Made by a program: the position numbers and the translations under genes. Shown here in pieces: positions 4,469 through 41,414 of a stretch of DNA of 42,968 nt. A model generated the notes under the pieces. It did not search any database. It had not been told where the DNA came from and saw only the letters and a program-made list of their open reading frames with translations. The stretch comes from Thermoplasmata archaeon (lineage in GTDB: Archaea; Thermoplasmatota; Thermoplasmata; UBA10834), in the NCBI GenBank assembly GCA_049273895.1, contig JBASRQ010000071.1, positions 1-42,968 of the forward strand. Direction: 5' to 3'. How positions within the stretch are numbered: the stretch's first letter is position 1; every line of letters begins with the position of its first letter.

Positions 4469-7400
4469 ATGACCGCGAACGCGAAGGTCGTGCTCGAGCG
4501 CAGGTACCTCAAGAAAGACGACCAGGGAAAACCAATTGAGACGCCAAGGGAACTGTTCGAGCGAGTGGCGAAGGGAATAGCCATTGCGGAAAGGAACTAC
4601 GGCAAATCCGATGCGGAGATGGACAAGACAGCCGAAAAATACTACGAGATAATGGCTCGGCTTGAGTTCATGCCGAACAGCCCGACACTGATGAACGCAG
4701 GCAGAGAGCTGGGGCAGCTGTCCGCTTGCTTCGTCCTGCCAATCGAAGACTCGATGGAAGACATCTTTGACGCCATCAAATACACAGCCCTGATTCACAA
4801 ATGTCTTGTTCCAGAAACTCTGGTGATGACAGACGCAGGGTGCAGGACGCTTGGGACAGTCGGATCCGGCGCGTGGGTGGAAACCCATGAGGGCATGGAT
4901 GTAGTTCACTCGAAGCACGTGAACGGCATTCAGGAAGTGTTCACGGTCGAGACTCATGAAGGCAACAGGATCACAGGGACCGCGCTCCATAGGCTCATGA
5001 CATGGAACCCCGATGGCGAGCTCGCCTGGCAGAAGATAGGTCAGCTGAAGCCCGGCGACAAACTCGTGATGAAACTCGGCGGCTGGCTTGGGGGCGCAGA
5101 GATGAGCGTACCTTTCGACCTATCTGAGTTCGCCGAGTCTGGCGTTGACGACAGATTGATAGGTGCAGATGAGAGGGCTCTGTGCGCATTCCTCAGGAAG
5201 ACCTTCAGCGACAGAGGCTGGATCTCACCTGCGGGCGTCGTCAGCGCTGAGTGCAGCTCACGGAAACTCGCTTCAGACTTGCAGACCGTCCTGTTCTATC
5301 TTGGAATTCTGACGGTCAGAGAGGGAGCCAGACTGACCGTGTGCAACAGGGCAGGCTTCATGGCGTTCAAGGAGAAGGTCGGATTCGACTCCGTCGTGCT
5401 TGCAAGGCGCCTCGAGGCGGTCGACGTCGAGCTAATGCTCGAGGAGCTGGCCGCGATGGGCACGCTCCACGAAGAGCCGGACGATGAAGGACACTATGTC
5501 GTGACCGTGAGGGGTGTCCTGCCCGAGGGAAAGCGGGAGGTGGTCGACCTGACCGTGCCTCAGCGGCATGCATACCTCGCGAACGGATTCATATCTCACA
5601 ACAGCGGAGGGGGAACCGGATTCAGCTTCTCTAGGCTGAGGCCTGCGAGCGACTCCGTCAAGAGCACTGCAGGTGTCTCGAGCGGGCCGATTTCGTTCAT
5701 GGAGGTCTTCAACGCGGCCACGGAGACCATCAAGCAGGGGGGGACGCGCAGGGGGGCGAACATGGGCATACTGCGCGTGGACCATCCCGACATCCTCGAG
5801 TTCATCACCAGCAAGCGCGACAGCACCAAGCTGACCAACTTCAACATATCCGTGGCATTGACCGACAAGTTCGTTCAGGCCCTGGAGGTGGACGGGGAGT
5901 ACGACCTCGTCAACCCGAGGACAAAACAGGTAGCCAGGAAGTTGAAGGCCAGGAAGGTCTTCGACCTCATAATCAACATGGCCTGGAGGAATGGGGAGCC
6001 GGGCGTGATCTTCTTAGACCGGATCAACAGGGACAACCCGACACCGAAGGTGGGGGAGATCGAGAGCACCAACCCTTGCGGCGAGCAACCCTTGCTGCCT
6101 TACGAATCGTGCAACCTGGGATCCATTAACCTCGCGAAGATGCTGACCCACAAGGACGGCCGTCCCGCATTCGACTGGGCGAAGCTGGGAGAGACCGTCC
6201 GCTGGTCGGTGAGGTTCCTCGACGATGTCATCGACGTCAACAAGTACCCGCTCAAGCAGATCGAGGAGATGACCAGGGCGAACCGCAAGATAGGCCTCGG
6301 CGTAATGGGTTTCGCTGACATGCTCCTGAGGCTGGGCATTCCCTACGACACCGAGGAGGCGGCCGGGCTCGGCCGCGACATCATGAAGTTCATCAACGAC
6401 AAGGGACACGAGGCCTCCGTCGTGCTGGCGGAGGAGCGGGGAAGCTTCCCGAACTTCCCTGAGAGCACGCTGGCGAGCATGTACAAGCGCATCAGGAACG
6501 CGACGGTGACGACCATCGCCCCGACAGGAACCATCAGCATAATCTCGGGGGTGTCGAGCGGCATCGAGCCAATATTCGCCATTGCCTATGTCCGCAATGT
6601 CATGGACAAGGACATCCTGCCCGAGGTGAACCCGATATTCGAGGAGGTCGCCAGAGACAGGGGCTTCTACACCGAGGAACTCATGAAGGAGATCGCCACA
6701 AAAGGCTCCGTGAAGGACCTCAAGATGGTCCCGGAGGACATACGAAGGCTCTTCGTCACGGCGTTGGATATCTCGCCGGAGTGGCACATAAAGATGCAGG
6801 CCACATTCCAAGATTTCACGGACAACGCGGTCTCGAAGACCGTCAACTTCCCGAAGGAGGCCACGCCCAAGGATGTCGAGGACGTCTATCTCATGGCCTA
6901 CAAGCTGGGATGCAAGGGCGTAACTGTGTACCGATATGGAAGCCGCGAGGATCAGGTACTCAGCGTGGGCGAGGAGGCCAAACAGGCGGATGAACTGCGG
7001 GCCGAGCAGGAGGAGGCGTCGAGGCTCCCCAGGGCCAGACCGTATGTGACTCGCGGCTCGACCCAGAGGCTCGAGACCGGCTGCGGCCATCTCTATGTCA
7101 CGATCAACGAGGACGAGAGAGGCCTGTGCGAGGTGTTCACCCAGATGGGCAAATCCGGCGGGTGCACGGCCTCTCAGGCGGAGGCGGTCGGCAGGCTGAT
7201 ATCGCTTGCGCTCAGGTCCGGAATCGAGCCCGAGGCTATCGTCAAGCAGCTCAAGGGCATACGCTGCCCCTCACCGTTGTGGCAGCCGGGAGGAATGGTG
7301 CTCTCCTGCAGCGACGCCGTCGCCAAAGCCCTTGAACGGTTCGTCAAGAACAGTCCGCTCGCGGAGGAGAAGGGCGAGGGGACGGTCCCGGCAACGGCTG

Positions 7401-7537
7401 GGCCGGGCGGTCCAGCAAAGCAGAACTACATCAACAGAGGGGATGTGTGCCCCGAGTGTCCTGAATGTGGAAGCATGGTGGAGTATGTCGAGGGTTGCGT
7501 CGTCTGCAGAACCTGCGGCTTCTCCAAGTGCTGGTGA
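4469..7537 (+). CDS. nrdJ: Adenosylcobalamin-dependent (class II) ribonucleotide reductase, interrupted by an intein
   Basis: The N-extein ...MPNSPTLMNAG...ACFVLPIEDSMEDIFDAIKYTALIHK continues after the intein as SGGGTGFSFSRLRP. Later motifs are NPCGEQPL and TIAPTGTISI, and there is a C-terminal zinc ribbon CPECPECG...CVVCRTCG. I place the start at ATG 4469 (MTANAKVVLERRYL). The 50 upstream codons in the ORF track (from 4319) are G/R/A-rich and look non-coding. Confidence 0.9.
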   Translation: MTANAKVVLERRYLKKDDQGKPIETPRELFERVAKGIAIAERNYGKSDAEMDKTAEKYYEIMARLEFMPNSPTLMNAGRELGQLSACFVLPIEDSMEDIFDAIKYTALIHKCLVPETLVMTDAGCRTLGTVGSGAWVETHEGMDVVHSKHVNGIQEVFTVETHEGNRITGTALHRLMTWNPDGELAWQKIGQLKPGDKLVMKLGGWLGGAEMSVPFDLSEFAESGVDDRLIGADERALCAFLRKTFSDRGWISPAGVVSAECSSRKLASDLQTVLFYLGILTVREGARLTVCNRAGFMAFKEKVGFDSVVLARRLEAVDVELMLEELAAMGTLHEEPDDEGHYVVTVRGVLPEGKREVVDLTVPQRHAYLANGFISHNSGGGTGFSFSRLRPASDSVKSTAGVSSGPISFMEVFNAATETIKQGGTRRGANMGILRVDHPDILEFITSKRDSTKLTNFNISVALTDKFVQALEVDGEYDLVNPRTKQVARKLKARKVFDLIINMAWRNGEPGVIFLDRINRDNPTPKVGEIESTNPCGEQPLLPYESCNLGSINLAKMLTHKDGRPAFDWAKLGETVRWSVRFLDDVIDVNKYPLKQIEEMTRANRKIGLGVMGFADMLLRLGIPYDTEEAAGLGRDIMKFINDKGHEASVVLAEERGSFPNFPESTLASMYKRIRNATVTTIAPTGTISIISGVSSGIEPIFAIAYVRNVMDKDILPEVNPIFEEVARDRGFYTEELMKEIATKGSVKDLKMVPEDIRRLFVTALDISPEWHIKMQATFQDFTDNAVSKTVNFPKEATPKDVEDVYLMAYKLGCKGVTVYRYGSREDQVLSVGEEAKQADELRAEQEEASRLPRARPYVTRGSTQRLETGCGHLYVTINEDERGLCEVFTQMGKSGGCTASQAEAVGRLISLALRSGIEPEAIVKQLKGIRCPSPLWQPGGMVLSCSDAVAKALERFVKNSPLAEEKGEGTVPATAGPGGPAKQNYINRGDVCPECPECGSMVEYVEGCVVCRTCGFSKCW
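4802..5602 (+). mobile_element. Intein (267 codons) inserted in nrdJ between ...ALIHK and SGGGTG...
   Basis: Begins with Cys (TGT 4802; CLVPETLVMTDAG, block A). Has a TxxH block B (TGTALH). Ends ...VVDLTVPQRHAYLANGFISHN (AAC 5600-5602) with Ser +1. The middle carries one degenerate LAGLIDADG-like motif (AFLRKTFSDRGWI) plus SRKLASDLQTVLFYLGI. Confidence 0.85.
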
Positions 7538-12726: not shown

Positions 12727-14016
12727 ATGGCCCTGAATCTGACGAGACATTTTTCCGAAAGGACCAAGGAGATGCGCGCATCCGAAGTCAGGGAATTGCT
12801 GAAGCTACTCCAGGTTCCAGACATGATCTCGTTTGCCGGAGGCTTTCCAAACCCGGAATCGTTCCCTGTAGAGATAATCAGACAGATCGTGAGCGACGTT
12901 CTCGAGAAGGATGGGGCGCAGGCACTGCAGTACGGGATCACCGAGGGATACGCCCCCCTCAGAGAGAGCGTCGCAGACCGGATGAACAAAAGAGGCATGG
13001 ACATCTCAAAAGAGAACGTGTTGATTGTGAGCGGATCGCAGCAGGCAATCGATCTCATGGGCAAGATATTCATCGATCCAAAGGACACGATCGTGATTTC
13101 CGCTCCTACTTATCTTGCCGCTCTGACAAACTGGGCGGTCATGCAGGCCACGTTTGAATCCATCCCGATCGACCATAACAACATGCGGATGGACATCTTC
13201 GAGGAGAGAATGAAGAGGCTGGTGAAGAGGTCGAACCCGCCAGAGATAGTGTACGTCCTGCCGAACTTCCAGAACCCTGCCGGTGTCACGATGCCGGAGA
13301 AGAACAGGAGGAAGATGGTGGACATGGCTTCGGAGTACGATTTCATCATCCTCGAGGACGACCCCTACGGAGACCTCCGTTACAAAGGAGATCCGATCCC
13401 GCCGCTGAAGCATTGGGATGACGAGGGGAGAGTCGTCTACACCAGCACATTCTCGAAGATCCTTGCTCCAGGACTACGAGTGGGGTGGGTCGTCGCTGCT
13501 CCAGAGATCCTGAAGAAGTTGATAGTCGCGAAACAGTCCACGGATGTTTGCGCGAACGTCCTCGGGCAGAGGATAGCTCACGAGTACATCGTCAGAGGCC
13601 ACATAGATCCGCAGATCGAGAAGATCAAGCAGTTGTACAAGCGCAAGATGGACCTGATGCTCTCTGGGATGGAGGAATTCATGCCCGACGGAATCGGGTG
13701 GACAAAGCCGGAAGGAGGGATGTTCCTCTGGGTCACGCTCCCAGAGATGATGGATTCTGTGGAGCTCCTGAAGAAGGCGTTGAGGAAGAGAGTGGCATTC
13801 GTCTCCGGGAGGGCGTTCTTCGCGGATCCGAAGGAGGGAACGAGCACCATGAGGCTGAACTTCACTCATCCTTCGGACCAGATGATAACCGAGGGGCTTC
13901 GGAGGCTCGGCTCGGTCCTGAATCAGGAGATCGTTTCCAAGTGGGACAAGTCGAAGGAGACGGATGAGCGCAGGATGGAAGATGTAGTCCGGGGATCGCT
14001 CCTCGGCAAATCCTAG
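12727..14016 (+). CDS. Class I/II PLP-dependent aminotransferase (2-aminoadipate/aromatic aminotransferase-like)
   Basis: ISFAGGFPNPESFP, NFQNPAGVT, EDDPYGDLRY and the PLP-Lys motif STFSKILAPGLRVGW. Confidence 0.85.
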   Translation: MALNLTRHFSERTKEMRASEVRELLKLLQVPDMISFAGGFPNPESFPVEIIRQIVSDVLEKDGAQALQYGITEGYAPLRESVADRMNKRGMDISKENVLIVSGSQQAIDLMGKIFIDPKDTIVISAPTYLAALTNWAVMQATFESIPIDHNNMRMDIFEERMKRLVKRSNPPEIVYVLPNFQNPAGVTMPEKNRRKMVDMASEYDFIILEDDPYGDLRYKGDPIPPLKHWDDEGRVVYTSTFSKILAPGLRVGWVVAAPEILKKLIVAKQSTDVCANVLGQRIAHEYIVRGHIDPQIEKIKQLYKRKMDLMLSGMEEFMPDGIGWTKPEGGMFLWVTLPEMMDSVELLKKALRKRVAFVSGRAFFADPKEGTSTMRLNFTHPSDQMITEGLRRLGSVLNQEIVSKWDKSKETDERRMEDVVRGSLLGKS

Positions 14017-14714
14017 AAGACTTCCGCGCCAGCGTGCACGACGATGCCTTTGTCCGTGATCGAATAGGGCTTCACTCGTCTGGAATGATTCGTCCGCCTC
14101 ATCTTCAGTATCCTCACCGTCAGCTGGACCTCGCCGCCCTCCTTGCTCTCGTCAGACTGGAGCAGAAGGACGCCATCTGCAGTGTATTCCGCAAGCCCGT
14201 CTCTGGAAGACCGAGGATTCTCGTCCTTGACTTCCGCGGTCAACAGGACCGTGGCTCCGGTGCTGCGCAACAGCTGGCACAAGTTGAACAGGTTGGACCG
14301 ACGCTCGTTCTCGTCGGCGAACATCATGTTGAGCAAGGACACGGAATCCAGTACGACCCTCTTAGCGCCGAAGGACTTGATGAACTTCGGAAGTTCGCTC
14401 TTGATGCGCGTGATGGTCGTCTTAGCATCCGACGGCTCGAGCTTGAACAGCCCGAGCTTCTTCTTGTCGATGGCTCCCGAAAGGTCCCAGCCAAATGATG
14501 AGGCGTTCTTGGCGATCGAGTCCTTGTCCTCTTCAAGAGAGATGAAAATGCAGGGCTCATCGTGCTTCAAGCCCTCGACGATGAACTGAAGACCCAGAGT
14601 CGTCTTGCCGGTCCCGAAGGATCCCATCGCGACCACGATGTGGTTCTCAGGCAACCCCCCTTGGAGCATTTCGTCCAGTCCATCGATTCCAGTCTTCACC
14701 CTGTTCACTGCCAT
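14013..14714 (-). CDS. KaiC/RecA-superfamily ATPase (single domain, intact motifs)
   Basis: GIDGLDEMLQGGLP, Walker A GSFGTGKTTLG, catalytic-Glu region FISLEE and Walker B RVVLDSVS. Confidence 0.85.
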   Translation of the reverse strand: MAVNRVKTGIDGLDEMLQGGLPENHIVVAMGSFGTGKTTLGLQFIVEGLKHDEPCIFISLEEDKDSIAKNASSFGWDLSGAIDKKKLGLFKLEPSDAKTTITRIKSELPKFIKSFGAKRVVLDSVSLLNMMFADENERRSNLFNLCQLLRSTGATVLLTAEVKDENPRSSRDGLAEYTADGVLLLQSDESKEGGEVQLTVRILKMRRTNHSRRVKPYSITDKGIVVHAGAEVF

Positions 14715-14718
14715 ATGA

Positions 14719-15567
14719 TTATGCCACCCGTTCCGTGTTTATTACAACGAAGCCACTCTGAGATGTTATGAGCGTCGCGAACCGCGCTATCCTCTCTTGG
14801 TCCAGATGCGGTAGAACGCTCATGAACTTCTCAACATAGAGATACCTCTGACGCTTGGATGTGTGATGAAACTTCGCCCATTCGAACTTGAATACGCCAT
14901 CTACGCTGTCGATTATCATCTGCTGCCGCTTCCGGTCGAGTATCTCATCCGTCAGGATGAGGTAGAACACAGCGCCCCATCTCTTGGCCATTCTCTGGAT
15001 GCCTTTGAGCAGTGCGATGACATCCTGGAAGGCTACCGTCTCGGAGACCACGAGGTCCGTGAGGGAGTCCAGGATCACCATGCTTCTCGGCGCGTTCACA
15101 TCCAGGAAATCCACGAGAGATTCCAGCAGCCCGTTCTTCTTCTTATCGGAGAAGATTTCTTCGGATCCCTCCGAACCCAACCAGGACGTCGGAACGACCG
15201 TGTGAATGAAGTAGTCCCTCGAGAAGTCCTTGAAAAGGAGAGTGGACTTCAGAGACTCGTAGAAATCCTTGTTGAAGGATAGCTTGACGTCCTGTAGGAT
15301 GTCATCCTTCGAGCGAGAGAACGTGATGTAGCACGTCTTGTCGGGGAGTCTTCCGCTCTTCCCCGCATCACCAAGCATGAAGGCCCTCGTGTCTGGATAT
15401 TCCTTGACAATGCCGATCTTGGCTGCGGACGTCAGGGCGAACTCATGACCCCCGCCACCGACATCGCCTAGCAACAGGACAACTGAGCCAGCAGGCAATC
15501 CTCCCTGGATGATAGAATCGAAGTCGGCAACCCCAGTAGGTATCCTCAGGACATCCCCTTCTGACAT
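14719..15567 (-). CDS. KaiC/RecA-like paralogue with degenerate P-loop (predicted non-catalytic partner)
   Basis: It has the same N-terminal layout (GVADFDSIIQGGLPAGSVVLLLGD). However, the Walker A position reads GDVGGGGHEF, lacking the Lys-Ser/Thr. A Walker B-like MVILDSLTD is retained. It lies 4 nt upstream of the intact paralogue. Confidence 0.7.
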   Translation of the reverse strand: MSEGDVLRIPTGVADFDSIIQGGLPAGSVVLLLGDVGGGGHEFALTSAAKIGIVKEYPDTRAFMLGDAGKSGRLPDKTCYITFSRSKDDILQDVKLSFNKDFYESLKSTLLFKDFSRDYFIHTVVPTSWLGSEGSEEIFSDKKKNGLLESLVDFLDVNAPRSMVILDSLTDLVVSETVAFQDVIALLKGIQRMAKRWGAVFYLILTDEILDRKRQQMIIDSVDGVFKFEWAKFHHTSKRQRYLYVEKFMSVLPHLDQERIARFATLITSQSGFVVINTERVA

Positions 15568-23206: not shown

Positions 23207-23350
23207 CGCCTCCGCGTGCTCTGGACGATTCTATCAATTCTGATACACATAACGATACATTTATATGAGCATAGTAAAATGATAACTCGTCACAATCCTG
23301 TCAGTAGCCCATTGGGTTCAGAGCTATCGACAGGCGGAGCTTGGTGAGTC

Positions 23351-26300
23351 TTGGCAGGCAGTTACCTCAAGCAACTCCAACTAGCTAAGCAGCTAGAAGA
23401 GAAGACAAAAGAAGCGCAGAAGAACAGAGACCTCGCCGAGAAAGAAAACGATGCCCTTGAGAAGTTCCTGAAATTCTGCAAAGAGAGCAATGTAGACATC
23501 TCGTCAGTCGAAAAGCCCCAGCGAGATTTCGAGAGCTCGATGGCAGCCAAGGACTATCAGGCAGCTCTGGCACATGTCAGGAAGGCCCAGGAAGAGGCGA
23601 AAGCCGCCTACATGCGCAACATTGGAGAGGTGGGGGATTCAGTCGAGGCCATTCTAACGCTCGTTCAGGGTTCGGGAAGCGAGTCGAAGAGTGCTCGAGA
23701 GCTCTTGGAAAAAAGCAAAGAACGGGCACTGAACGACGACCTCGAGAGCGCAATGAAACTGGCCAGAGACGCCTACGATGCCTCGGAAAGAACGCTTCAC
23801 GAGGTATTCTCCCAGTTATTCTCTCAGGCCCAGGAGACGGTCATGCAGGCCAAGGAGATTGGCGACGACGTCAGCATCTTTGAGGACGGTTTGTCCAGGG
23901 CGAAGGCTGCGCTGCAAGCGCAAGAATACGAAGCATGCATGACCCAGATCAAGGAAGTGCTCGATGGAGCTGAAGAGGATCTGAAAGCACAGGTCACCGC
24001 CGTGATATCCCGCGCAGATGAGCTCATGTCGGCCAGCCAAGACTTGGGCGCAGACATGTCCCGGGTTAAGGCGCATTCCGAGAAAGCGGTCGCTGCACTC
24101 ACCGCCATGAAATTCAAAGAGGCGCTCTCGTATGCCAAGAAGGCGGAGGCGGAGGGAGAGGGCGCCATCTCCGCTAGGTTCCAGGAAAGGGTCAGGGAGA
24201 CAAGAGAGAGCATCAGGAAAATGAAGAACGCGAAGGAGTACGCCGCGGTTCCTCAGCAGCTACTGGATCAAGCTCTCAGCGCCCTCAAGGAGAAGAAGTA
24301 CATTGAGGCCCTTCACGCAATCAATAGCGCTCATGAGTTCGTCCACAAAGCGGAGTTCGAATCCGTTCTAGAAGTCATTTCTCAGGCCCGGGACCGATTT
24401 GTTCTCGCGAAGAAAGTCGGCGTCGACATGACCAAGGCGATCATGCTTCTGAACACTTCCCGGGACAACTTGAAGCTCGGCAAATTCGACGACGCAATCC
24501 GATATGCGGAGCAGAGCCGGAAGGAAATTGACAGTGCCCTCGAGATGTTTTACAAGGCGAGAGACAATGTCGTCGAGCTGGCAAAGGCGGTCAAGTTCGC
24601 TGCTGACCTAGGCGCGGACACGAGCGAAGTCAAAAACACTTTAACTGATGCCAGGAAGTTCTTCGAGCAGCAAGATTACGGCAAGACCGCCGAGGTGACA
24701 AAGCGCGGCCTTGACGAAGTGAAGAAGCTCACATATGACCGCACCATGGAGGCAATCAACGCCTCGGACAACTCCGTCAAGCTGGGCAAGGAGATTGGCG
24801 CGGACATGACCGAGGCGGAGGGAATGTTGCAGAGGGCGATGGACAGCCTCGGCAAGGACAACATGATGGATAGCGTCGGCCTCGCGAAGTCCAGCAAGGA
24901 AGCCGCAAATGCGGCAATGACGAGAGTCATGAGCGACAAGCTCCAGAGCATCGATCAATTCGTGAAAGGGTATCCTGGTGAGTCAAACTTGGCAGAGGTC
25001 GGAGAGACAATCACACAGGCAAGACAGTATGTTGCCTCATACGAATTTGATAAGGCGCAAGGTCTCATCAAGCAAGTGACGCACAGGATAGAAACGATCG
25101 GTCAGGTGGAGTGCGACAGACTTATCGCTTCTGCGACCTCGAGAATCAATGCAGTCAAATCGATGGAGGGGGATGCATCCGATCTCGAGATCCTTCTCAC
25201 CCGCGCAAACGAGGCGTTGTCCAAGAAGATCTATGAGGATGCCACGGCGAGGGCGAGGGAGATCATCCAGAACGCCGACGATATGATGACCAAACTGGTC
25301 CAGACCGAGTTCTCATCCGTCAAGGACAGCCTCGAGGAAGCGAAGACCATCGGGATCGACGTCGAGGATGCTAAGACCCAACTCAAGGAGGCCAGGACTA
25401 AGGCCGAGGGGCAGGATTTCAGCGCGGCGTTCAAAATCGTGAGAAATGCGAAAACCGCCCTCCTTCAGAGAATCACCCGATACGATGGAATCAAGGGCAA
25501 GGTCCGAAAAACGGAGGAGCTCATCTCGGAGGCTGGCCGGACCAAGACCGATCTCACGGCGGCAGTCCGTAAGCTGGACGCCGCGAGAAACGCGTTCTCG
25601 ACAGGCCAGCTAGACGAAGCAGAGAGGCTCCTCGACGAGGTGATGGCGGAGACTGAGAAGAACCTCGGCATGTATCTCGCAGCCAAGTTCATCTTAAGCT
25701 CAAAGGAGAGCATCGAGCTCGCCCAGACCTACGGGATCGACGTCGAGCCTGCGGTCAGGCTTCTCAGCAGGGCAAAGGAGATGATGAAGTCCAAGAGCTA
25801 CGACGAGGCCCTGACAGCTGCCAAGCAATGCGATGAAGACGCGCGGAAGACCATCACGAAGAACATAGCAGAAATGACAAAGGACCTCCAAAGGCTCTTG
25901 ACAGATGCGAGGAACGTGGGCGTCGACACAGTCGGACCCGAGAAGCTCGCAGAGAAGGCTAGAGAGCTAGCAAGGGCCGGTGACTATGTCGAGTCGCTCC
26001 GGTGCATCGCCTCCGCGAAGGAGGACATCAACCATGTCAAGAACCTCAGCTCCCAGGCAGCTCTCGAGATAAGGGTCGCCAGGAATAACCTGAAGGATGC
26101 GGAGACCCTCGACATGGACGTGGGAAAGGCAAGGGAGTTCTTGGAGCAGGCCATCGAGGGCCTTACTAGGCATCAATATGCCATCGCTCTCGAGCTTGCC
26201 AAGAAATCGTCCGAGGCATCTTCCGAGGTGACGAGGACCCGCATATGGGACACCCTTGAGAAGTTCAAGGGAAGACTGGAGAAGTCCGCGGCCGAGGGCT

Positions 26301-27862
26301 TCAATCTCGGGACGGCCGAATCATGCGTCGCGGATGGCATCAGGGCATTCAAAGAAGAAAGGTATCAGGATTCACTCAAGCTAGCCATGAAATGCGAGAT
26401 AGAGATGGAAAGGGCTGAGCTTCAGCGGGATATAAGCGCGAGGTCCGTGGAACTCGCCCGAAAGAAGCTGACGGATGCTTCGGCTGATGGCATCAGGAGC
26501 CAGCGGTTGAACGACCTTGTCGACAAGGCAGAAACACTTCTGAGGCAGGGCAAGTACGTGGACGCGATGACCGCGGCCATAGAGAGCGGGGACGAGCTCT
26601 ATCTCATAAGGGAGAACCTAGACAGCAGCAGAATCGAGTTGAGCGCGAGCAGAGAGCGCGTCGAGAGACTCAAGAAGATAGGGATAGACACTTCCGAGTG
26701 CGACGAGATTTTGGACATCGCGCAGGAACATCTGTCGGCACACGAGTTCGCCAAATCAAGGGATGCATTGAGAAGGGCCTCCGAGAGGGCTGAATCGCTC
26801 TTCGAGAACTCGATCAAGGACGTGATGGACCAGAACCGCCAGGTGATTGCCAAAGCCAAGGCAATGGGCATCAACACGAAGTCCTCCGAGGACTTGCTCG
26901 ATGTGGCGAACACTTCGTTCCAGGAGAAACTGTGGGACTTCGCGTTCCAGCAGGCGATGGCGTGCAGGGACACCTGCCTGCAGCTGATTTCCAAGAAGCT
27001 TTCGAACTTGATCGAGGAGATACAGGACAAGACGGATAGCTTGAGGCGTTTCGGGGCTGCCGTCAAACCGATAGAGGACATGGTCGACATCGCGCAGGCT
27101 GCTGAAGGAAAAGGAGACATTGCGAAGGCGTTCCAGACGCTCATGGACGCCGACCAGAAGATCAGCAGCCTTGAGGATGCACACAAGAAGTACCTGGACA
27201 TATCGATAGCAGCTGACAGCGCCATGGAGAACCTCGGAAGGTATGGATTCTCCAAGAAGGAACCGGAAAGACTGATTGCGATGGCTGAGATTGAGAAGGA
27301 AAAGGATTACGACTCCGCAATCGAGCTCGTCGCAGAGGCGCTTGACACCGCGAAGGAGCTCATGGAAGCGTATTCGCCTGAGATCGCCGGCTCGATATCC
27401 GGCGTCGGACTCCAGGAAGGCGCCCAGAGCGATCTGACAGTCAGGCTCACGAACATCGGCAAGGCGCTGGCGCGGGATGTGTCACTCGAAGTCCGGGGAG
27501 ACTTCGACGTCAAGACGGCGCAAGGTGTCGCATCATTGAAGCCCGATGCAGAAGCCACAGTGACAATCAACCTCGTTCCAAGGCGCAGCGGAAGCGTCCC
27601 CGTCCGGATCAGGATCACCAGCAAGAGGCAGCTCGACGGGAAGATGCAGATGTTCGAGATAGAGGACACGGTCAACGTCTTCGCCGCGGGGCCTCCGTTC
27701 AAGCTCGGCAGGGCTACAGACACTACGAGGTGCATCTCCTGCCAGGGCAGGATCAAGCCCGGCTTCGACATAGTCACATGCAGATGCGGAGGACAGATGC
27801 ACCTTTCGTGCGCCAAGAGGACGAGCCAGTGCCAGGTCTGCGGTCAGAAGTACCAGTTCTAG
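23351..27862 (+). CDS. Giant (1,503 aa) alpha-helical tandem-repeat protein with C-terminal Ig-like beta domain and C4HC3 zinc finger; function unknown
   Basis: Uninterrupted 4.5-kb ORF with a TTG start and GGTGA just upstream, and an A/T-rich box (acatttatatg) about 85 nt upstream. The N-terminus is hydrophilic, with no signal peptide or TM segment visible. See findings for the repeat and finger details. Confidence 0.85.
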   Translation: MAGSYLKQLQLAKQLEEKTKEAQKNRDLAEKENDALEKFLKFCKESNVDISSVEKPQRDFESSMAAKDYQAALAHVRKAQEEAKAAYMRNIGEVGDSVEAILTLVQGSGSESKSARELLEKSKERALNDDLESAMKLARDAYDASERTLHEVFSQLFSQAQETVMQAKEIGDDVSIFEDGLSRAKAALQAQEYEACMTQIKEVLDGAEEDLKAQVTAVISRADELMSASQDLGADMSRVKAHSEKAVAALTAMKFKEALSYAKKAEAEGEGAISARFQERVRETRESIRKMKNAKEYAAVPQQLLDQALSALKEKKYIEALHAINSAHEFVHKAEFESVLEVISQARDRFVLAKKVGVDMTKAIMLLNTSRDNLKLGKFDDAIRYAEQSRKEIDSALEMFYKARDNVVELAKAVKFAADLGADTSEVKNTLTDARKFFEQQDYGKTAEVTKRGLDEVKKLTYDRTMEAINASDNSVKLGKEIGADMTEAEGMLQRAMDSLGKDNMMDSVGLAKSSKEAANAAMTRVMSDKLQSIDQFVKGYPGESNLAEVGETITQARQYVASYEFDKAQGLIKQVTHRIETIGQVECDRLIASATSRINAVKSMEGDASDLEILLTRANEALSKKIYEDATARAREIIQNADDMMTKLVQTEFSSVKDSLEEAKTIGIDVEDAKTQLKEARTKAEGQDFSAAFKIVRNAKTALLQRITRYDGIKGKVRKTEELISEAGRTKTDLTAAVRKLDAARNAFSTGQLDEAERLLDEVMAETEKNLGMYLAAKFILSSKESIELAQTYGIDVEPAVRLLSRAKEMMKSKSYDEALTAAKQCDEDARKTITKNIAEMTKDLQRLLTDARNVGVDTVGPEKLAEKARELARAGDYVESLRCIASAKEDINHVKNLSSQAALEIRVARNNLKDAETLDMDVGKAREFLEQAIEGLTRHQYAIALELAKKSSEASSEVTRTRIWDTLEKFKGRLEKSAAEGFNLGTAESCVADGIRAFKEERYQDSLKLAMKCEIEMERAELQRDISARSVELARKKLTDASADGIRSQRLNDLVDKAETLLRQGKYVDAMTAAIESGDELYLIRENLDSSRIELSASRERVERLKKIGIDTSECDEILDIAQEHLSAHEFAKSRDALRRASERAESLFENSIKDVMDQNRQVIAKAKAMGINTKSSEDLLDVANTSFQEKLWDFAFQQAMACRDTCLQLISKKLSNLIEEIQDKTDSLRRFGAAVKPIEDMVDIAQAAEGKGDIAKAFQTLMDADQKISSLEDAHKKYLDISIAADSAMENLGRYGFSKKEPERLIAMAEIEKEKDYDSAIELVAEALDTAKELMEAYSPEIAGSISGVGLQEGAQSDLTVRLTNIGKALARDVSLEVRGDFDVKTAQGVASLKPDAEATVTINLVPRRSGSVPVRIRITSKRQLDGKMQMFEIEDTVNVFAAGPPFKLGRATDTTRCISCQGRIKPGFDIVTCRCGGQMHLSCAKRTSQCQVCGQKYQF
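23480..27385 (+). repeat. About 21 tandem, diverged ~62-codon (~186-nt) protein-level repeats
   Basis: G-x-D anchors are IGDDVS(170), LGADMS(232), VGVDMT(356), LGADTS(420), IGADMT(482), IGIDVE(667), YGIDVE(794), VGVDTV(856), LDMDVG(920), IGIDTS(1110) and MGINTK(1172). They fall at multiples of 61-65 residues, with degenerate units in between. Each anchor is followed by a-x3-L-x2-A-x6-(Y/F)-x2-A. Positions were hand-counted. Confidence 0.7.
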
Positions 27863-29211
27863 CTTGACCCGCCTATCTTTGCTTTCGAGATCCTCAAAGC
27901 AGGTGTGATCACTCCGAACGCTTCCCGTGGCTCCTTGCCTGCCATGTCGACTCGCTTAAGGAGATCGATCAAACCGATGCCAATGGTGGCTTGCCGAACA
28001 GATGGGCCCAAGCCTCCGCGATCGATCTTGTAGCTTTCCATCATCAGACCCGAGAACTCGCCCGTCGCGAGGTTGGGGTAATCATACGTGAGCCTGAGAT
28101 AGACGCCGCCCTTCGTTTCTCTGATCATCTCATCCAGCGAGGAATCACCTTTCTTGACGACAAGATTGGAGCTGGAGATAGATGGCGGTCGCCTGTAGCT
28201 CCAGATGGTTCCCCCTCGAGAGGAGTTCCCCGTGCTGGGCACCGAGTCCTTCCCCGCGGTGTAGCTGTCATGGAGGTACGATTTCAGAACCCCATTCTCG
28301 ACTATCGGGGTGAGCCGCGACGGCGTACCCTCTCCGTCAAAGGAACAGCTACCAGTCGCCCATTCTATTCGGGGGTCATCGGAGACGGTGAGAGAACGAG
28401 CAGCCACCTCTGACCCCAGCTTCCCTGCCAGATAGCTTCTCTTGCGCTGAATACTTTCGGCGTTCACTCCTCCACCTATTGCCATCGAGAAGATGAATCC
28501 GACCGCCAGTGGGTCGATCACCACTGGGTAGTCTCCAGTCAGGATCTTCGTCTGAGTGAGTCCCATGATCGCGTGATCAGCGGAGCTTCGAGCAACTTTC
28601 GCAATCATAGCCCTGTCGAGTCTCCTGCTCGACCCGGCGTCGAAGCCCGAGAACATCGCAGATCCTGATTTCGCGACAGACTCAGCGCTCACCTCGCAGA
28701 ATGTCAGCCTCTGGGAGGAGTTGAAGCCATTGCTGTTGGCGAGCACGAACTTGCATTCACCGACAGCGATGCTTGCGTTCACCGAAGTGATCTTCTTTTC
28801 GCTCCCCGCAGTCTCTGAGAGCTCTATGGCCATTTCGACTATGTCATCAGGCTCGAGCTTCGCAATGCGCACATCGAAGAGACCATTGACTTTCGATGGC
28901 CGGGCAGACTCGGGAAGGCTCTTGAAGTCTGGATCGGGAGTTCCCGCCTTGGCGAGGGAGACCGCAAGCTTCGCCGCTTTCTTGATCGCAGAAGGGTCGT
29001 AGCCGGTGCAGGACGAGAAACCCGAACATCCCGCCCTGAACGCTCTGATCGCCACTCCCGGATCGAGGACATTGCTCGATTGTTTCATGGACCCTTTCTC
29101 GATCTCGGCGGAGGAGTACCACGAGTCCGTGATGAGCACATCACAGCAAGACGGACCGAGCTTCATCACATGCTCGACCGTTCTCTCCGCGAGCTTTTTC
29201 ATGTCCACCAT
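27859..29211 (-). CDS. pmbA: PmbA/TldE-family metallopeptidase subunit
   Basis: 450 aa. TldD/PmbA-family architecture lacking the HExxxH motif, with a C-terminal GGVYLR...FSGL...GIGLIDLLKRV pattern. It lies 12 nt downstream of tldD. Confidence 0.85.
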   Translation of the reverse strand: MVDMKKLAERTVEHVMKLGPSCCDVLITDSWYSSAEIEKGSMKQSSNVLDPGVAIRAFRAGCSGFSSCTGYDPSAIKKAAKLAVSLAKAGTPDPDFKSLPESARPSKVNGLFDVRIAKLEPDDIVEMAIELSETAGSEKKITSVNASIAVGECKFVLANSNGFNSSQRLTFCEVSAESVAKSGSAMFSGFDAGSSRRLDRAMIAKVARSSADHAIMGLTQTKILTGDYPVVIDPLAVGFIFSMAIGGGVNAESIQRKRSYLAGKLGSEVAARSLTVSDDPRIEWATGSCSFDGEGTPSRLTPIVENGVLKSYLHDSYTAGKDSVPSTGNSSRGGTIWSYRRPPSISSSNLVVKKGDSSLDEMIRETKGGVYLRLTYDYPNLATGEFSGLMMESYKIDRGGLGPSVRQATIGIGLIDLLKRVDMAGKEPREAFGVITPALRISKAKIGGSS

Positions 29212-36956: not shown

Positions 36957-39900
36957 TTGGGCCTACTTGACACGCTCTTGAACAAAGAGAAGAAGCTTCT
37001 GGAGAGATCCAGGAAAGAGCTGGCAAGAGCCGATTCACTCGAAAAGAGCGGCCGAGTGAAGGACGCTCTTGCGGAGCTCGAAAAGACAAGCGCACTGCTG
37101 AAAGAGAACATGCTTTTCATCGGGAAGATGAGGCTGGACTTCTCGCAGGTGTTCACTCAGCTGGGCGATGGCTACCTCGGTCACGAGAAGGCGCAGATGG
37201 CGCAGGATGCTGCGAAGGTGGCACTCCAGCTGGATCCGAAGAACCCGCTCGCCATGGGCGTTGAAGGGCGCTCAGCGCTGAAGCTCGGCATGGCCGAACA
37301 GGCACTCGCATCGCTCAGAAATGCCGTGGCACTGGCACCTGACTCTGAGAATCTGTGGTCGGCGCTGGGCGAGGCCCAGGATGCGATAGGTGATTTTGTC
37401 GGGGCGATCGAGAGCTACAAGCGCGCTCTGGCCATCAACCCTCTTGGCATTAGTCACTTCGACGAGATACTCGCGCACACGCCCAACGATCTCGATATGA
37501 TCAAGAAGAAAGGAACCACATTGAGCAAGCTGCAGAGGTACGATGAGGCCGTCAGCACATTCCAGACCGGAATTGACATCGAGCCCAAGGACAAGGATCT
37601 CTGGATAGGAAAGGCGGCTGCGCTCAACCTCGCGGGCAAGAGCGAGCCAGCAATCGAGGCGCTCAACTACGCCCTGAAGATAGATCCAAACGATGTGTAC
37701 TGCCTCGACAACCTCGGAAGGATCCTGCACAAGCAGGGCATGCGCGAGGAGGCCCTGACGAGTTTCACCAAAGCTTCAGAAATCAGTCGAGGGAACAAGG
37801 TTGTCTGGAACGAGCTCGGGGTTGTGCAAGAGGAGCTCGACCTGCACGACAAGGCCCTCGAGTCTTTCGACCAGGCGCTGAGGATTGATCCGAACGATAT
37901 CAACGTTCTGAACAACAAGAAGAAGACCCTGCTGAAGATCGCGCGTTACACAGAGCTCATAGGGGTTTGTGACAAGATACTTCTGATCAGCCCGCATGAT
38001 CACGAATCGCTGCTTGACAAGGCTAAGGCCCTGTACGAATTGAAGAGATACGACGAGGCGCTGACCTTCATCGACGCAACGCTCAACCTGGCGCCTAGAC
38101 TGAAGGAAGCGATGAACCTCAAGAAGGAGTGTCTGATCAAGCTTGAGAAGCACGGCGAAGTGATCGCGTGGTGCACCAGGATTCTCGAAGTCGACCCCGA
38201 CGACTATGCTGCGATGCACGACAAAGGTGTCGCACAGCTGAAGGCCGACCGACCGCAGGAAGCCATGAAGACTCTCGAGAAGGCATTGAAAACAGCTCCT
38301 GACCCTCTGCCGATGCTCGAGAGCTTGAAGGACGCCTACAAAAGGCTCCAGAAAGACGATCAGGTCGTGCAGACATGCGATCGGATAATCGCAATTGACG
38401 CGAACAACAAGACCGCGCACCTCGACAAGGCCGTCGCGTTGGACAGAGCTGACCAGTTCGACGAAGGCCAGGCGGCGTACAGGCTGGCTCTCAAGTACGA
38501 TCCTAAGAACCCGGAGATCTTCTTCAACTTGGCCGCTCTGTTCCTCAGGTCCGGTAGGCCCAAAGAGGCCATGGACTACTCCAAACAGGGGATTCAGATT
38601 GCGCCGACGAACCACGCGCTGTGGAAGATCAATGGCGACGCGAGTCTCAATGCCAAGGACTACGAGGCAGCAGTCGCAGCCTACTCGAAGGCTGTCGAGC
38701 TTGGTCCAAAAGATCAGACGAGCTTCGCGAAACTCGGCCGGTCGTTCATAGAACTCAAGCGGTTCGAGCAGGGCCTGATGGCGTACGAACATGCGCTACA
38801 GCTTGACCCGAAAGACGCCGAAGTGTGGTTCCAGAGGGCCGAGACGCTCGAATGGCTCGACAGAGACCAGGATGCGCTCTCTTCGGTTCAAGAGGCCATG
38901 AGGCTCAAGGCCACGACGCCCGAGTACAGAGTGAAGGAAGGCATGCTCCTCAGGAACCTTGGCAAGCTAGATGACGCTCTGAGGGCATTCGACGAGGCCC
39001 TCAGGCTGTCCCCGAGAAACCCTGCCGTGCTGAACTCGAAGAAGGATCTGTTGAAATCCCTGAAGAGGAACGATGATGTGATAGCCGTGTGCAACGAGAT
39101 ACTTCAGTTGGCCCCCAAGGACCGAGATGCTCTGATAGACAAGGGCAGCGCGGCGCTCTTTCTGAAGCGGCCCAACGAGGCTCTAGTGTGCTTCAACAAG
39201 GCTCTCGAGCACGATGCGGACAACCTCGACACACTGGAGCTCAAGAAGATGGCGCTCATCTCCCTCGACGACTCTGAGAGTGTCGTGACGGTCACTGATC
39301 ACATTCTGCGCCTGAGCCCGAAGAATAAGAATGCGTTGGCGGACAGGGCGAGCGCGCTCGAGAAGCTGGGCAGAGCTGACGAGGCCATCAGAAGCTACGA
39401 GACTGCACTGACACTCGACCCGAAAGATATCTTCCTCTGGAACAGGAAGGGGCTTCTTCTTCTAGGGGCGGGTAACCCAGCGCAGGCGGCGGAGGCGTTC
39501 GAGTACGCGATCAAGCTAGACTCCAACCAACCGTTCGTCCTGAACAACAGGGGAAAAGCGTATCTCGAGCTCAGAAGGTTCGAGGAGTCTCTCGCCGATT
39601 TCAAGAAGGCCATAAAGATCCTGCCCAACGTGGCCGAATTCCACACAAACGAGGGCAGAGCCCTTGCGAGCCTCGGCAGATTCGACGACAGCATTGGGTC
39701 GTTCAACGAGGCACGCAGACAGGCTCCCAGAGACTCCTCCACATTCAAGTACATGGGCATGGCCCTCCTCAAATTGAACAGGGTGTCGGAAGCACTCGGG
39801 GCGTTCGACGAGGCGATCAAGCTAGGCTCCGACGACAAGGACATGTGGAAGAGCAGAGCGAAAGGGTTCGAGGCGATGGGCGACAAGGAGGAGGCTGTGA

Positions 39901-41414
39901 GATCCTACATGAAGGCGCTCGAGATCGACCCCGAGGACCAAGCAGCTTGGTACAGGCTCGGCCTGCTGCACCTGGAGATCGGCGGGTTCTCGGACGCGAA
40001 CGCATGCTTCGACAAAGCGCTGGACCTCGACAGCGCCAACCCCAAGATATGGATGAGCAAAGGCTTCGCGATGGAGAAGCAGAACCTCTACGAGGAAGCT
40101 GTGAGTTCCTACGACAGGGCGATCGGGCTCGACTCCAACGACAAGGAGGCATGGAAGAGCAAGGGACAGGTGCTGCTCGCGCTCGGACGCGCGGAACCAG
40201 CGTTGCGATGCTTCGACCACGCGCTCAGCATCGACCCCTACTTCGAGGCCGCCTCAGAGGGCAGGAAGCAAGCGGAGGACGATATCCGCAAGAACAAGAT
40301 CGAGGACTACTCCAGGGCGGTGCTTGAGTTCGAGTACGCCCATGGCCGCCCAGTGACCAAGGAGGAGGCGTTCAAGGTGTGTGGAATTCCCTATGCATTC
40401 CTCGGAGACGTGCTGGAATTCCTGAGCGGTAAGGAGAATGTCAGCCTCACTGGCATGGTCAAGGAGGAGTCCGACAGATACGAGAGGATGTCGCGAGAGG
40501 TCCTCGTGAACACGATGGAGAAGCGAGATCTTGCGGCACATGGTCTACGACTCTGCGACATCACCGTCAATTTCCCAGATCTCAGAATTTCGAGCGGGAA
40601 GAAGATACTCAGCTACATACAGGCGGTCGAGGAGCATGAGTTCAGCACGAAGTCATCGGACCCCCAGACTGAGGCATTGCTGCGACAGGCGCTCGAACTG
40701 CCCAACGACCAGAAGAACGTCCTGGGACTGATCAGGAACCTCGGCATCGGGGCGTATTGGGCACGGCAAATTGTGACGATCCTTCACACCTTCCAGGGCG
40801 CTGGATTCGCGACGCCAGCAGTGGCGCTCAAGTCCATCGTCAGCGAGAGCTACGGGCACTACTCCCCTTACGACGAGCGTGCAGCTTGGCGAGAGAGGCC
40901 TCCGCCTGAACAGCCTTCATTTCCGCACGAGAGGAGAGAACGCCGTCGAGAAGGGCCCCAGCCCGAAGAGATGTATGAAGAGGTGCGGGAGCCGAGAGCG
41001 GCCGACAGGTACAGTCGTGAGGGCGAAGTCCTCAGACAAAAACCGCGGCCGAGGCCTCAGAGGGAGCGGCCAGGAAGGGAGAGCGAGCGCGCTCCTCAGG
41101 AAATTCCCTCTGATTTGGTCGGGCGCAGATGCCTGTTCCACGGGGGCATCGCGGTCGCGAGGTGCGCGAAATGCAAGGCGGTGCTCTGCAGGGAATGCAT
41201 CAGAGGGTCTGACAGATGCCCCAGATGCAACACCCCGCTGAGGGCGGTGGAAGAGACCGAAGAAGGGAGACGGCCGAGAGATGTCGAGGCCGAGGAAGAG
41301 TCTGAAGAGCAGGCCGAGCAGGAGCAGGAAGAAAGGCCTCGGAAGAGACCGAGGGAAAGGCAGAAACCTCTCCGAAAGAAGACGGAAGAGGATGAGGATC
41401 TGAGTCGCCTTTGA
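36957..41414 (+). CDS. Giant (1,485 aa) TPR-repeat protein with a globular region, R/E/P-rich low-complexity region, B-box-like zinc finger and charged tail
   Basis: Uninterrupted 4.46-kb ORF with a TTG start and AGGTGG 6 nt upstream. It has about 31 units of the A-x3-(F/Y)-x2-A(L)-x-(L/I)-(D/S)P-x-(N/D) type. No TM segment is visible. Confidence 0.9.
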   Translation: MGLLDTLLNKEKKLLERSRKELARADSLEKSGRVKDALAELEKTSALLKENMLFIGKMRLDFSQVFTQLGDGYLGHEKAQMAQDAAKVALQLDPKNPLAMGVEGRSALKLGMAEQALASLRNAVALAPDSENLWSALGEAQDAIGDFVGAIESYKRALAINPLGISHFDEILAHTPNDLDMIKKKGTTLSKLQRYDEAVSTFQTGIDIEPKDKDLWIGKAAALNLAGKSEPAIEALNYALKIDPNDVYCLDNLGRILHKQGMREEALTSFTKASEISRGNKVVWNELGVVQEELDLHDKALESFDQALRIDPNDINVLNNKKKTLLKIARYTELIGVCDKILLISPHDHESLLDKAKALYELKRYDEALTFIDATLNLAPRLKEAMNLKKECLIKLEKHGEVIAWCTRILEVDPDDYAAMHDKGVAQLKADRPQEAMKTLEKALKTAPDPLPMLESLKDAYKRLQKDDQVVQTCDRIIAIDANNKTAHLDKAVALDRADQFDEGQAAYRLALKYDPKNPEIFFNLAALFLRSGRPKEAMDYSKQGIQIAPTNHALWKINGDASLNAKDYEAAVAAYSKAVELGPKDQTSFAKLGRSFIELKRFEQGLMAYEHALQLDPKDAEVWFQRAETLEWLDRDQDALSSVQEAMRLKATTPEYRVKEGMLLRNLGKLDDALRAFDEALRLSPRNPAVLNSKKDLLKSLKRNDDVIAVCNEILQLAPKDRDALIDKGSAALFLKRPNEALVCFNKALEHDADNLDTLELKKMALISLDDSESVVTVTDHILRLSPKNKNALADRASALEKLGRADEAIRSYETALTLDPKDIFLWNRKGLLLLGAGNPAQAAEAFEYAIKLDSNQPFVLNNRGKAYLELRRFEESLADFKKAIKILPNVAEFHTNEGRALASLGRFDDSIGSFNEARRQAPRDSSTFKYMGMALLKLNRVSEALGAFDEAIKLGSDDKDMWKSRAKGFEAMGDKEEAVRSYMKALEIDPEDQAAWYRLGLLHLEIGGFSDANACFDKALDLDSANPKIWMSKGFAMEKQNLYEEAVSSYDRAIGLDSNDKEAWKSKGQVLLALGRAEPALRCFDHALSIDPYFEAASEGRKQAEDDIRKNKIEDYSRAVLEFEYAHGRPVTKEEAFKVCGIPYAFLGDVLEFLSGKENVSLTGMVKEESDRYERMSREVLVNTMEKRDLAAHGLRLCDITVNFPDLRISSGKKILSYIQAVEEHEFSTKSSDPQTEALLRQALELPNDQKNVLGLIRNLGIGAYWARQIVTILHTFQGAGFATPAVALKSIVSESYGHYSPYDERAAWRERPPPEQPSFPHERRERRREGPQPEEMYEEVREPRAADRYSREGEVLRQKPRPRPQRERPGRESERAPQEIPSDLVGRRCLFHGGIAVARCAKCKAVLCRECIRGSDRCPRCNTPLRAVEETEEGRRPRDVEAEEESEEQAEQEQEERPRKRPRERQKPLRKKTEEDEDLSRL
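37130..40260 (+). repeat. Array of about 31 consecutive 34-residue TPR units (protein-level repeat)
   Basis: Inter-repeat turns recur from LDPKNPLA, IDPNDVYC, IDPNDINV, VDPDDYAA, YDPKNPEI, LDPKDAEV, LSPRNPAV, LSPKNKNA, LDPKDIFL, IDPEDQAA and LDSNDKEA through to IDPYFEAA. Confidence 0.85.

Follow-up and report, generated by a model that had tools for sequence, protein, structure and literature searches.

In archaea, a ubiquitin-type cascade composed of E1, E2 and a small RING E3 has been proven biochemically for Caldiarchaeum, and the RING protein of this system carries I30 as the essential E2 contact, W58, and R69 as the linchpin (PMC5654768). The E2 enzymes of Thermoplasmatota form a clade located deep in the archaeal E2 tree (bioRxiv 10.1101/2023.07.25.550441), and no discussion of an E3 partner for these enzymes was found in the literature. 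We analysed a DNA stretch of 42,968 nt, hereafter the window, which corresponds to contig JBASRQ010000071.1 of a Thermoplasmata archaeon (GCA_049273895.1), and focused on one gene at 23351..27862 (+). It is an uninterrupted open reading frame (ORF) of 1,503 codons with a TTG start, and its product of 167 kDa, herein called the giant, consists of a conserved N-terminal helix, an array of 21 helical units, an Ig-like beta sandwich and a RING-type zinc finger. As far as searched, the family of this protein is undescribed in the literature. As its function we propose, at a probability of roughly 0.45, a cytosolic scaffold or spacer in the form of a fixed-length rod with docking modules at both ends, which has kinship to the ubiquitin machinery and in this clade is probably not a canonical E2-dependent ligase.

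The helical array and its two ends

The ORF is a real and strongly conserved gene. Comparison with three orthologues gave dN/dS values of 0.07-0.16, indicating purifying selection. An initial annotation had described about 21 tandem units of ~62 residues, and this description was confirmed. By autocorrelation analysis (BLOSUM62, residues 1-1345, compared with 200 shuffles), a peak with z = 9.5 was detected at lag 62, followed by z = 6.7 at lag 126 and ~3.5 at lags 188-190. A hidden Markov model (HMM) constructed from 11 obvious G-x-D units identified 21 evenly spaced units, and a second HMM pooled from orthologues, which is partly circular because the same sequences were used to build it, placed all 21 units in register with E <= 8e-9 for each. 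Unit length varies between 61 and 65 residues across the array. The identity among the units of the window protein is merely 10-24%, and their consensus reads x13-G-x-D-x7-L-x2-A-x8-Y-x2-A.

Two AlphaFold2 (AF2) runs were performed on an alignment of 86 sequences, one for residues 1-1100 (pLDDT 83.9, pTM 0.33) and the other for residues 1036-1503 (pLDDT 89.8, pTM 0.55). The predicted pattern, repeated 21 times, is a helix of ~40 residues, a G-x-D loop of 4-7 residues, a helix of 15 residues and a turn of 3 residues, so that a unit opens with the last part of one long helix, passes through loop, short helix and turn, and closes with the first part of the next. For mean-field covariation analysis, the 21 units of 116 orthologues were pooled into 2,320 double units (effective number ~1,260). 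The short helix was found to lie in antiparallel orientation against two partners, the last part of the long helix before it (position pairs 11-21, 10-17 and 5-28) and the first part of the one after it (26-42, 30-42, 26-38, 20-46 and 19-49), and pairs between long helices, for example 2-47, were also obtained. These pairs altogether indicate that each unit closes a small three-helix bundle and that each long helix is common to two bundles. In the resulting model, the unit-to-unit connectivity is spectrin-like and the hairpin within the unit is TPR-like. With 40 residues up and 15 residues down, the rise is estimated to be ~3.8 nm per unit, which would give a rod of ~60-80 nm if straight. The G-x-D-x-[ST], D-[YF] and aromatic-x2-Ala motifs probably represent helix caps and core positions, structural rather than functional or catalytic in nature.

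The unit had been noted as lacking a named family, with a period different from those of TPR, HEAT, ARM and spectrin repeats, and both points held: no Pfam, NCBIfam or PDB family was matched by the unit, the NCBIfam scan giving only an irrelevant match. PDB sequence searches with the whole protein and with the family profile yielded nothing significant. The spectrin repeat was detected neither by Pfam nor by Foldseek on the array, and Foldseek with the helical model returned nothing below E = 0.15 (designed helical repeats), EzrA (4uxv) appearing at E = 6. Pfam and NCBIfam scans of the protein revealed no domain for binding to membrane, actin, tubulin or DNA. A Pfam match to GapR_DNA-bd (residues 1137-1178; 23.4 bits against a cut-off of 22.6) was rejected as a coiled-coil artefact, because it covers 41 of 72 profile positions, falls in one of 21 homologous units and is recorded for no homologue; the Pfam matches to PET and HEPN were below their cut-offs and were likewise set aside.

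The local A-x3-L-x2-A-x6-Y-x2-A pattern had been called TPR/MIT-like. In agreement, unit positions 16-47 of the profile gave weak matches to consensus TPR proteins (E 3e-5) and to PP5 TPR; for Vps4 MIT, the value was only E ~1. One could then regard the giant as an ordinary long TPR-type adaptor, its 62-residue period being a TPR variant without special geometry. Some orthologues are indeed named 'TPR repeat protein' by JGI, and one remote member has a sub-threshold TPR_2 match, Pfam finding no repeat family in the remote members. On the window protein, however, no Pfam TPR model reached E <= 1, in contrast to the true TPR protein encoded by the same window (up to 391 bits), and no TPR structure was found by Foldseek. 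The period is 62 and not 34, and from geometric considerations the alternation of 40- and 15-residue helices could not stack as a TPR superhelix but would force a staggered, elongated array. We consider this explanation very improbable.

At the N-terminus, the sequence M-A-G-S-Y-L-K-Q-L-Q-L-A-K-Q-L-E-E-K... forms the front half of the initial long helix, an 'orphan' that no bundle precedes. The helix predicted by AF2 spans residues 2-45, and residues 8-29 weakly match positions 39-57 of the unit profile. The mean conservation of residues 1-33 (0.83) is among the highest in the protein; the units range from 0.57 to 0.83, units 6, 14-16, 19 and 21 being markedly more conserved than the others. 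The motif G-x-Y-L-K-x-L-Q-L-x-K-Q-L-E-E-K is kept in 21-unit relatives of 21-27% identity, with or without RING.

At the opposite end, the CARDB/Ig-like domain proposed from the sequence was recognised by Pfam as CARDB (PF07705; residues 1355-1422, 27.2 bits, above the cut-off of 22.7), and AF2 predicted a beta sandwich at about residues 1345-1454 (pLDDT ~85-91 for the strands) followed by a small strand/helix finger. Foldseek with the C-terminal model matched TRAP-beta (E 4e-7) and the CARDB structures of Pyrococcus PF1109 (3idu, 2kl6; E 1e-4), and also NBR1 and adaptin ear (both within the E range of 4e-7 to 1e-4), as well as arrestin. The protein has neither a signal peptide nor a transmembrane segment (highest 19-residue Kyte-Doolittle mean, 0.99), as had been stated. 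The Ig-like domain was considered odd in such an intracellular scaffold. This view has to be abandoned, because adaptin ear, arrestin and NBR1 are cytosolic Ig-like platforms, and there is nothing unusual about such a domain in the cytosol.

The Cys/His finger reported at the extreme C-terminus is present, but it had been under-read: its eight ligands, C1461-x2-C-x12-C-x-C-x4-H-x2-C-x6-C-x2-C1497, make a C4HC3 RING-type cross-brace. All eight zinc ligands are invariant among 86 aligned sequences. Their 12/4/6 spacing holds without exception in 116 orthogroup sequences, and likewise in the 39 superfamily representatives (of 148) with a match to the motif. Prok-RING_1 (PF14446) was detected at residues 1459-1502 with 23.4 bits, below its gathering cut-off of 29.1; the same family is precomputed for most homologues, and for P0122 it is listed without a weak or faint mark. 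As the Ig domain prevailed among the Foldseek matches of the C-terminal model, the finger was not separately comparable, and a search of the finger alone against PDB gave nothing significant (PHD finger protein 23 and MDM2 RING at E 0.7-3). The array is acidic overall, and the last 54 residues (1450-1503), including the finger, have a net charge of +7.

Orthologues, size classes and gene context

By a word-indexed search, 135 proteins were obtained, and all the names given were those of metagenome-assembled genomes (MAGs) of Thermoplasmata/Thermoplasmatota. The gene was found by genome scan in 42 species, all being Thermoplasmata-type MAGs. Homologues down to 35% identity are 1,498-1,520 aa in length, and among 115 full-length homologues just two indel sites were detected in the array. 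For the family search, a 62-position profile of the 21 units of the window protein was compared with 1.84 billion representative proteins. At E <= 1e-3 it matched 1,366 clusters, of which 138 also passed E <= 1e-30, and a single protein had as many as 46 matched stretches. The source names seen were those of Thermoplasmata, Thermoplasmatota or Methanobacteriota, except for two fragments labelled Planctomycetota. As judged from these profile matches, the 62-residue unit characterises a large family that has been met with in Thermoplasmatota alone. The initial annotation had missed this membership of the protein in a very large Thermoplasmatota family, some members of which are located in E1/ubiquitin/E2/JAB operons.

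The size classes of this family are discrete, with 21, ~47, ~60 and ~115-120 units. Members of ~1,490-1,540 aa carry 21 units, CARDB and RING; they gave a single collinear BLAST alignment to the window protein over residues 1-1,500 at 21-27% identity, and in comparison with P0122 the best match of unit i was unit i in 14 of 22 cases. Members of 1,440-1,445 aa (21-23% identity to the window protein) carry 21 units and CARDB without the finger, and one of these RING-less proteins, P0223, retains the thiolase/HMG-CoA-synthase neighbours of the window as partial synteny. Exactly 21 units were counted from end to end down to 21% identity. The same CARDB and RING head is present in members of 3,019-3,129 aa with ~44-47 units, and the larger members of 3,904, 7,274 and 7,686 aa (~60 and ~115-120 units) have plain zinc ribbons at the end or the start. 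The alignments indicate that the units are non-interchangeable and individually conserved over deep divergence. The conserved core of the 21-unit class consists of the N-terminal helix, the 21 units and the Ig domain, the finger being an accessory module.

Several relatives have features of their own. P0216 (L046:8001-29825; 7,274 aa) and P0227 (7,686 aa), both with ~115-120 units, end in a plain C-x2-C...C-x2-C zinc ribbon and, by the helix-length estimate per unit, would span ~0.45 μm; no ubiquitin-system neighbours were observed on the contig of P0216. P0123 (2,584 aa) carries a CARDB-like segment and a globular insert, the latter without Pfam recognition, in the middle of the array and not at its terminus. 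The 21-unit member P0124, encoded on a 4.2-Mb chromosome (CP070672.1), is adjoined by a convergent ORF of 1,650 aa (L048:10624-15576, -) without Pfam match. The JGI names of P0002, P0005-P0007 and P0091 include 'molybdopterin synthase catalytic subunit' and 'methionine synthase II', which are unsupported by the sequence and look like annotation errors that could spread.

The gene order Hel308, CGI-121, FTCD_N, FTCD_C, giant, optional TldD/PmbA and histidine ammonia-lyase (HutH) is kept down to 35% identity. A functional operon was sought among the conserved neighbours, including thiolase/HMG-CoA synthase, and none was suggested, these being housekeeping genes. The features of the locus are collected in Table 1. 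The gap between the FTCD_C gene and the ORF of the giant is 144 bp long and includes the TATA-box-like element, which may act as a promoter. In addition to the Shine-Dalgarno-like sequence, a second motif, GGTGA, is located at 23343-23347, upstream of the start codon. The TTG start proposed initially is supported by the conservation of TTG (23 loci) or GTG (6 loci), and never ATG, at the aligned position in 29 of 29 orthologous loci, most of which have a GGAGC-type motif 10-15 nt ahead of this codon. We take this conserved weak start codon to suggest selection for low expression.

Table 1. Positions of the giant gene, its domains and its flanking signals in the window
Feature	Position	Strand	Basis or remark
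TATA-box-like TTTATATG	23260..23267	+	~84 nt 5' of start codon; read from sequence
Shine-Dalgarno-like GGAGC	23336..23340	+	10-15 nt 5' of start
TTG start codon	23351..23353	+	first possible start past in-frame stop
N-terminal conserved helix, residues 1-33	23351..23449	+	conservation, AF2, motif in relatives
Array of 21 helical units, residues 34-1346	23450..27388	+	autocorrelation, unit HMMs, AF2, covariation
CARDB/Ig-like beta sandwich, residues ~1347-1455	27389..27715	+	Pfam, AF2, Foldseek
C4HC3 RING-type finger	27731..27841	+	C1461, C1464, C1477, C1479, H1484, C1487, C1494, C1497
Stop codon	27860..27862	+	4-nt overlap with end of convergent PmbA/TldD gene (27859..29211, -)

Other genes of the window also attracted attention. 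A second giant of 1,485 aa at 36957-41414 (+) is the true TPR protein referred to above (TPR_1, 391 bits), and its highly charged C-terminal tail carries a Cys-rich finger, C-x10-C-x2-C-x4-C-x2-C-x6-C-P-R-C; C-terminal zinc fingers are thus present on both giants of the window. The gene at 4319-7537 (+) encodes a ribonucleotide reductase large subunit of 1,072 aa with an inserted intein splicing domain and a TSCPD domain. Two adjacent genes for KaiC/RadA-like ATPases are located at 14013-15567 (-), the second matching the first ~45 KaiC profile positions only.

Another explanation is that the giant is a cytoskeletal or membrane-skeleton element, functionally analogous to spectrin or EzrA, which would self-associate end to end or side by side and set a cellular dimension, its basic finger serving as an anchor to membrane or DNA. 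Completion of an incomplete bundle occurs at the tetramerisation site of spectrin, and the orphan N-terminal helix of the giant is suited to such completion. The spectrin-like connectivity of small three-helix bundles, a unit number strictly fixed over deep divergence, the discrete size classes of 21, ~47, ~60 and ~115-120 units, the largest reaching ~0.45 μm by the same estimate, and an acidic rod with a +7 C-terminal segment including the finger are all consistent with this role. On the other hand, no binding domain for membrane, actin, tubulin or DNA turned up in the scans, and the structural search gave no spectrin (EzrA at E = 6 only). The conserved TTG/GTG start points to a scarce protein, whereas a bulk structural polymer would usually be abundant. 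The cytoskeletal role is therefore quite unlikely in our estimation; should the giants be rods with a structural role, they would have a bearing on how the cell is organised in archaea, in which a wall is often missing.

Ubiquitin-system operons and the RING-type finger

The RING-carrying members with ~47 units were found in a different context. A short gene of the ThiF-family E1 is located directly upstream of the giant gene, overlapping or abutting it, in all three readable contigs. In two of the three (P0126 and P0131), a small ORF, a UQ_con E2 and a JAB protease follow downstream; in the third (P0160), the E1 is kept and a PAN-like AAA ATPase is encoded nearby. At one of these loci (L045), the E1, E2 and JAB all score above the Pfam cut-offs, and the small ORF, located between the giant and E2, is ubiquitin-like (PDB ubiquitin chains, E 4e-7; Pfam ubiquitin, E 5e-4). 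This ubiquitin-like protein ends with ...PEGG-HGQRV and is a pro-form, because residues follow Gly-Gly. As judged from gene order, the giant of the ~47-unit members occupies the E3 slot of E1/giant/ubiquitin-like/E2/JAB operons and is a presumptive E3. In Caldiarchaeum, this set of genes was demonstrated to operate as a cascade of E1, E2 and RING E3 (PMC5654768). Since these family members hold the E3 position, the head of the window protein is homologous to that of a presumptive E3. The small ORF of the P0131 operon (L047:15514-15849, +), located between giant and E2 at the place expected for a ubiquitin gene, is not of the beta-grasp type; it resembles one 62-residue unit, ends with V-V-G-G-D and has no Pfam match, and is either a mis-called ORF or an unusual helical protein ending in Gly-Gly.

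The distribution of this linkage was examined at 80 metagenomic E2 loci. A full-length giant was found upstream at five only, where the E2 is at least 89% identical to that of P0126; the giant-E2 operon link is therefore not general, being confined to the P0126 lineage. Locus L059 adds a truncated C-terminal fragment of a giant with the same RING motif, and at L089:17422-18507 (+) a mini member of 362 aa, with four units and a strict C4HC3 finger, is encoded 7 kb downstream of a Thermoplasmata E2 gene. At ~20 E2 loci with long flanks, no RING gene was found within ~10 kb. On the closed chromosome CP070767.1, the genes for ubiquitin-like protein, E2 and JAB are located together, with ThiF nearby beyond two intervening genes on the opposite strand, and this cluster includes no giant. 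PADLOC gave no defence-system match for the giant, and the operon E1 and JAB matched only generic E1-E2, BilD and JAB models.

In the clade of the window, neighbouring genes and finger residues are both different from those of the ~47-unit relatives. No ubiquitin-system genes were found in the window, nor within +/-6 kb of the giant in the related loci L001-L044; E1, E2 and ubiquitin-like neighbours were met with only in the ~47-unit relatives. The search for E2 gave 81 clusters against 1,366 clusters for the giants, and by word-indexed search and indirect matching none of the 81 was traceable to CP070736.1, a closed genome that bears an orthologue and has its proteins in the database. Apparently the clade of the window lacks that E2. 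Immediately before Cys2, 74 of 116 orthogroup members have Ser (C-I-S-C), as opposed to I, V or L in 32 of 39 family representatives. In the window finger, A-K-R follows Cys6 and Gly stands after Cys8 at the linchpin position. The finger thus differs from RING-type E3 in the E2-contact hydrophobic residue, the central-helix Trp/Leu and the linchpin Arg/Lys.

The giant could nevertheless be a working RING E3 ligase or adaptor that acts in trans with an E1/E2/ubiquitin-like system encoded elsewhere, the rod presenting substrates or placing the ligase. For this explanation speak the eight-ligand cross-brace, Pro after Cys7 in 111 of 116 orthogroup members, the Prok-RING_1 assignment precomputed for most homologues, and the operons in which ~47-unit relatives with the same CARDB and RING head adjoin the ThiF E1, with UQ_con and JAB following in two of three and, at L045, with the ubiquitin-like gene between the giant and E2. 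Most long-flank Thermoplasmata E2 loci lack a RING gene within ~10 kb, so that an E3 would have to be supplied in trans; no RING proteins other than the giants were noticed in these lineages; and the Caldiarchaeum cascade of E1, E2 and small RING is a biochemically proven precedent (PMC5654768). Against it stand the absence of linkage to ubiquitin genes (0 in 42 species of the clade), the lack of an E2 match from the closed genome bearing an orthologue, Ser and Gly at the positions equivalent to I30 and R69 (PMC5654768), the existence of RING-less 21-unit relatives, and the small number of E2 clusters (81) relative to giant clusters (1,366). Ligase action in trans is thus judged unlikely. Canonical E3 activity of the window protein is likewise doubtful because ubiquitin linkage is absent, no E2 was traced to the closed genome bearing an orthologue, Ser occupies the E2-contact position and some 21-unit relatives lack the RING altogether.

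The proposed scaffold role of the giant and comparison with known systems

We return to the proposal that the giant serves as a cytosolic spacer and platform of fixed length. Joined by continuous ~40-residue helices, the 21 units would form an elongated rod. The orphan N-terminal helix may complete a bundle and thereby bind to a partner or to another molecule of the giant, and at the other end the CARDB Ig domain and the basic C4HC3 finger would act together as an interaction module. Units 6, 14-16, 19 and 21 are candidate docking sites along the side. In the clade of the window, the rod would be retained as spacer and platform after coupling to E2 was lost. Several points weigh against this proposal. 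The pTM values are low (0.33-0.55), as expected of a rod and equally of an uncertain arrangement, and the straightness and length of the rod are estimates from helix lengths alone. No partner is pointed to, the syntenic neighbours being housekeeping genes of which none is informative. The absence of E2 was read from a word-indexed search combined with indirect contig matching. In addition, the eight zinc ligands and the Pro after Cys7 are still conserved in the clade, which also fits a functional RING.

In a wider interpretation, the family is a hitherto unrecognised class of giant rod-shaped RING proteins acting as the E3 or scaffold of a Thermoplasmatota ubiquitin system, the fixed unit numbers (21, ~47 and ~115-120) provide rulers of ~80 to 450 nm, and the window protein is a ubiquitin-linked, cytoskeleton-like element. 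This interpretation seems rather unlikely as a whole. If it is true, the rods would provide prokaryotes with their first known giant scaffold E3, and there would be a ubiquitin system with an architecture of its own beyond the Asgard/TACK lineages. If the giants are the E3 partner of the Thermoplasmatota E2, they bear on the pre-eukaryotic rise of ubiquitin ligase scaffolds. The RING head, together with the E1/ubiquitin/E2/JAB operons of the longer relatives, offers the first functional handle on this family.

The domains at the end of the protein are of known kinds; no earlier description seems to exist of the unit, of the frozen 21-unit architecture, of the size classes or of the operon link. 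Throughout an entire archaeal class, the gene for this 167-kDa protein has retained precisely 21 units, and still it is without annotation; its public names extend from 'hypothetical' to 'molybdopterin synthase catalytic subunit', the latter plainly wrong. The new helical-repeat unit could become a family model for annotation, and its conservation illustrates that the units of a repeat protein can be frozen individually over deep time.

Among eukaryotic scaffold RING ligases (cullin-RING, TRIM and giant helical-repeat E3s), a long helical scaffold is combined with RING and a neighbouring beta sandwich, as in the giant. The scaffolds, however, are without homology, the rod of the giant would be several times longer, and its ligase activity is putative. 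With TPR/MIT hairpins, the giant shares the A-x3-L-x2-A ... Y-x2-A packing pattern, carried by the short helix together with the turn and the first part of the long helix; unlike TPR, its period is 62 instead of 34, the second helix is about three times longer, and no Pfam TPR match is obtained. Spectrin and EzrA repeats (PMC4243239) resemble the array in the consecutive three-helix bundles on a continuous helix, the elongated shape and the incomplete bundle at one end. The unit of the giant is nevertheless 62 residues long (helices of ~40 and 15) against ~106 for spectrin, and neither a sequence or Foldseek match (EzrA 4uxv, E = 6) nor an actin-binding or transmembrane module is found. A further comparison is with the small RING finger protein (srfp) of Caldiarchaeum subterraneum and Asgard archaea (PMC5654768; PMC3082918), which is small and has neither a long helical rod nor an Ig domain. 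Compared with srfp, the finger of the giant is of the C4HC3 type with fixed 12/4/6 spacing, a short Cys6-Cys7 segment and no equivalent of the Trp or the linchpin Arg, and in the clade of the window the gene stands outside ubiquitin operons, with Ser in place of the hydrophobic residue for E2 contact. Common to both are the binuclear cross-brace zinc finger and, for the ~47-unit relatives, an operon with ThiF-type E1, UQ_con E2 and JAB/Rpn11-like protease, in one case accompanied by a pro-ubiquitin.

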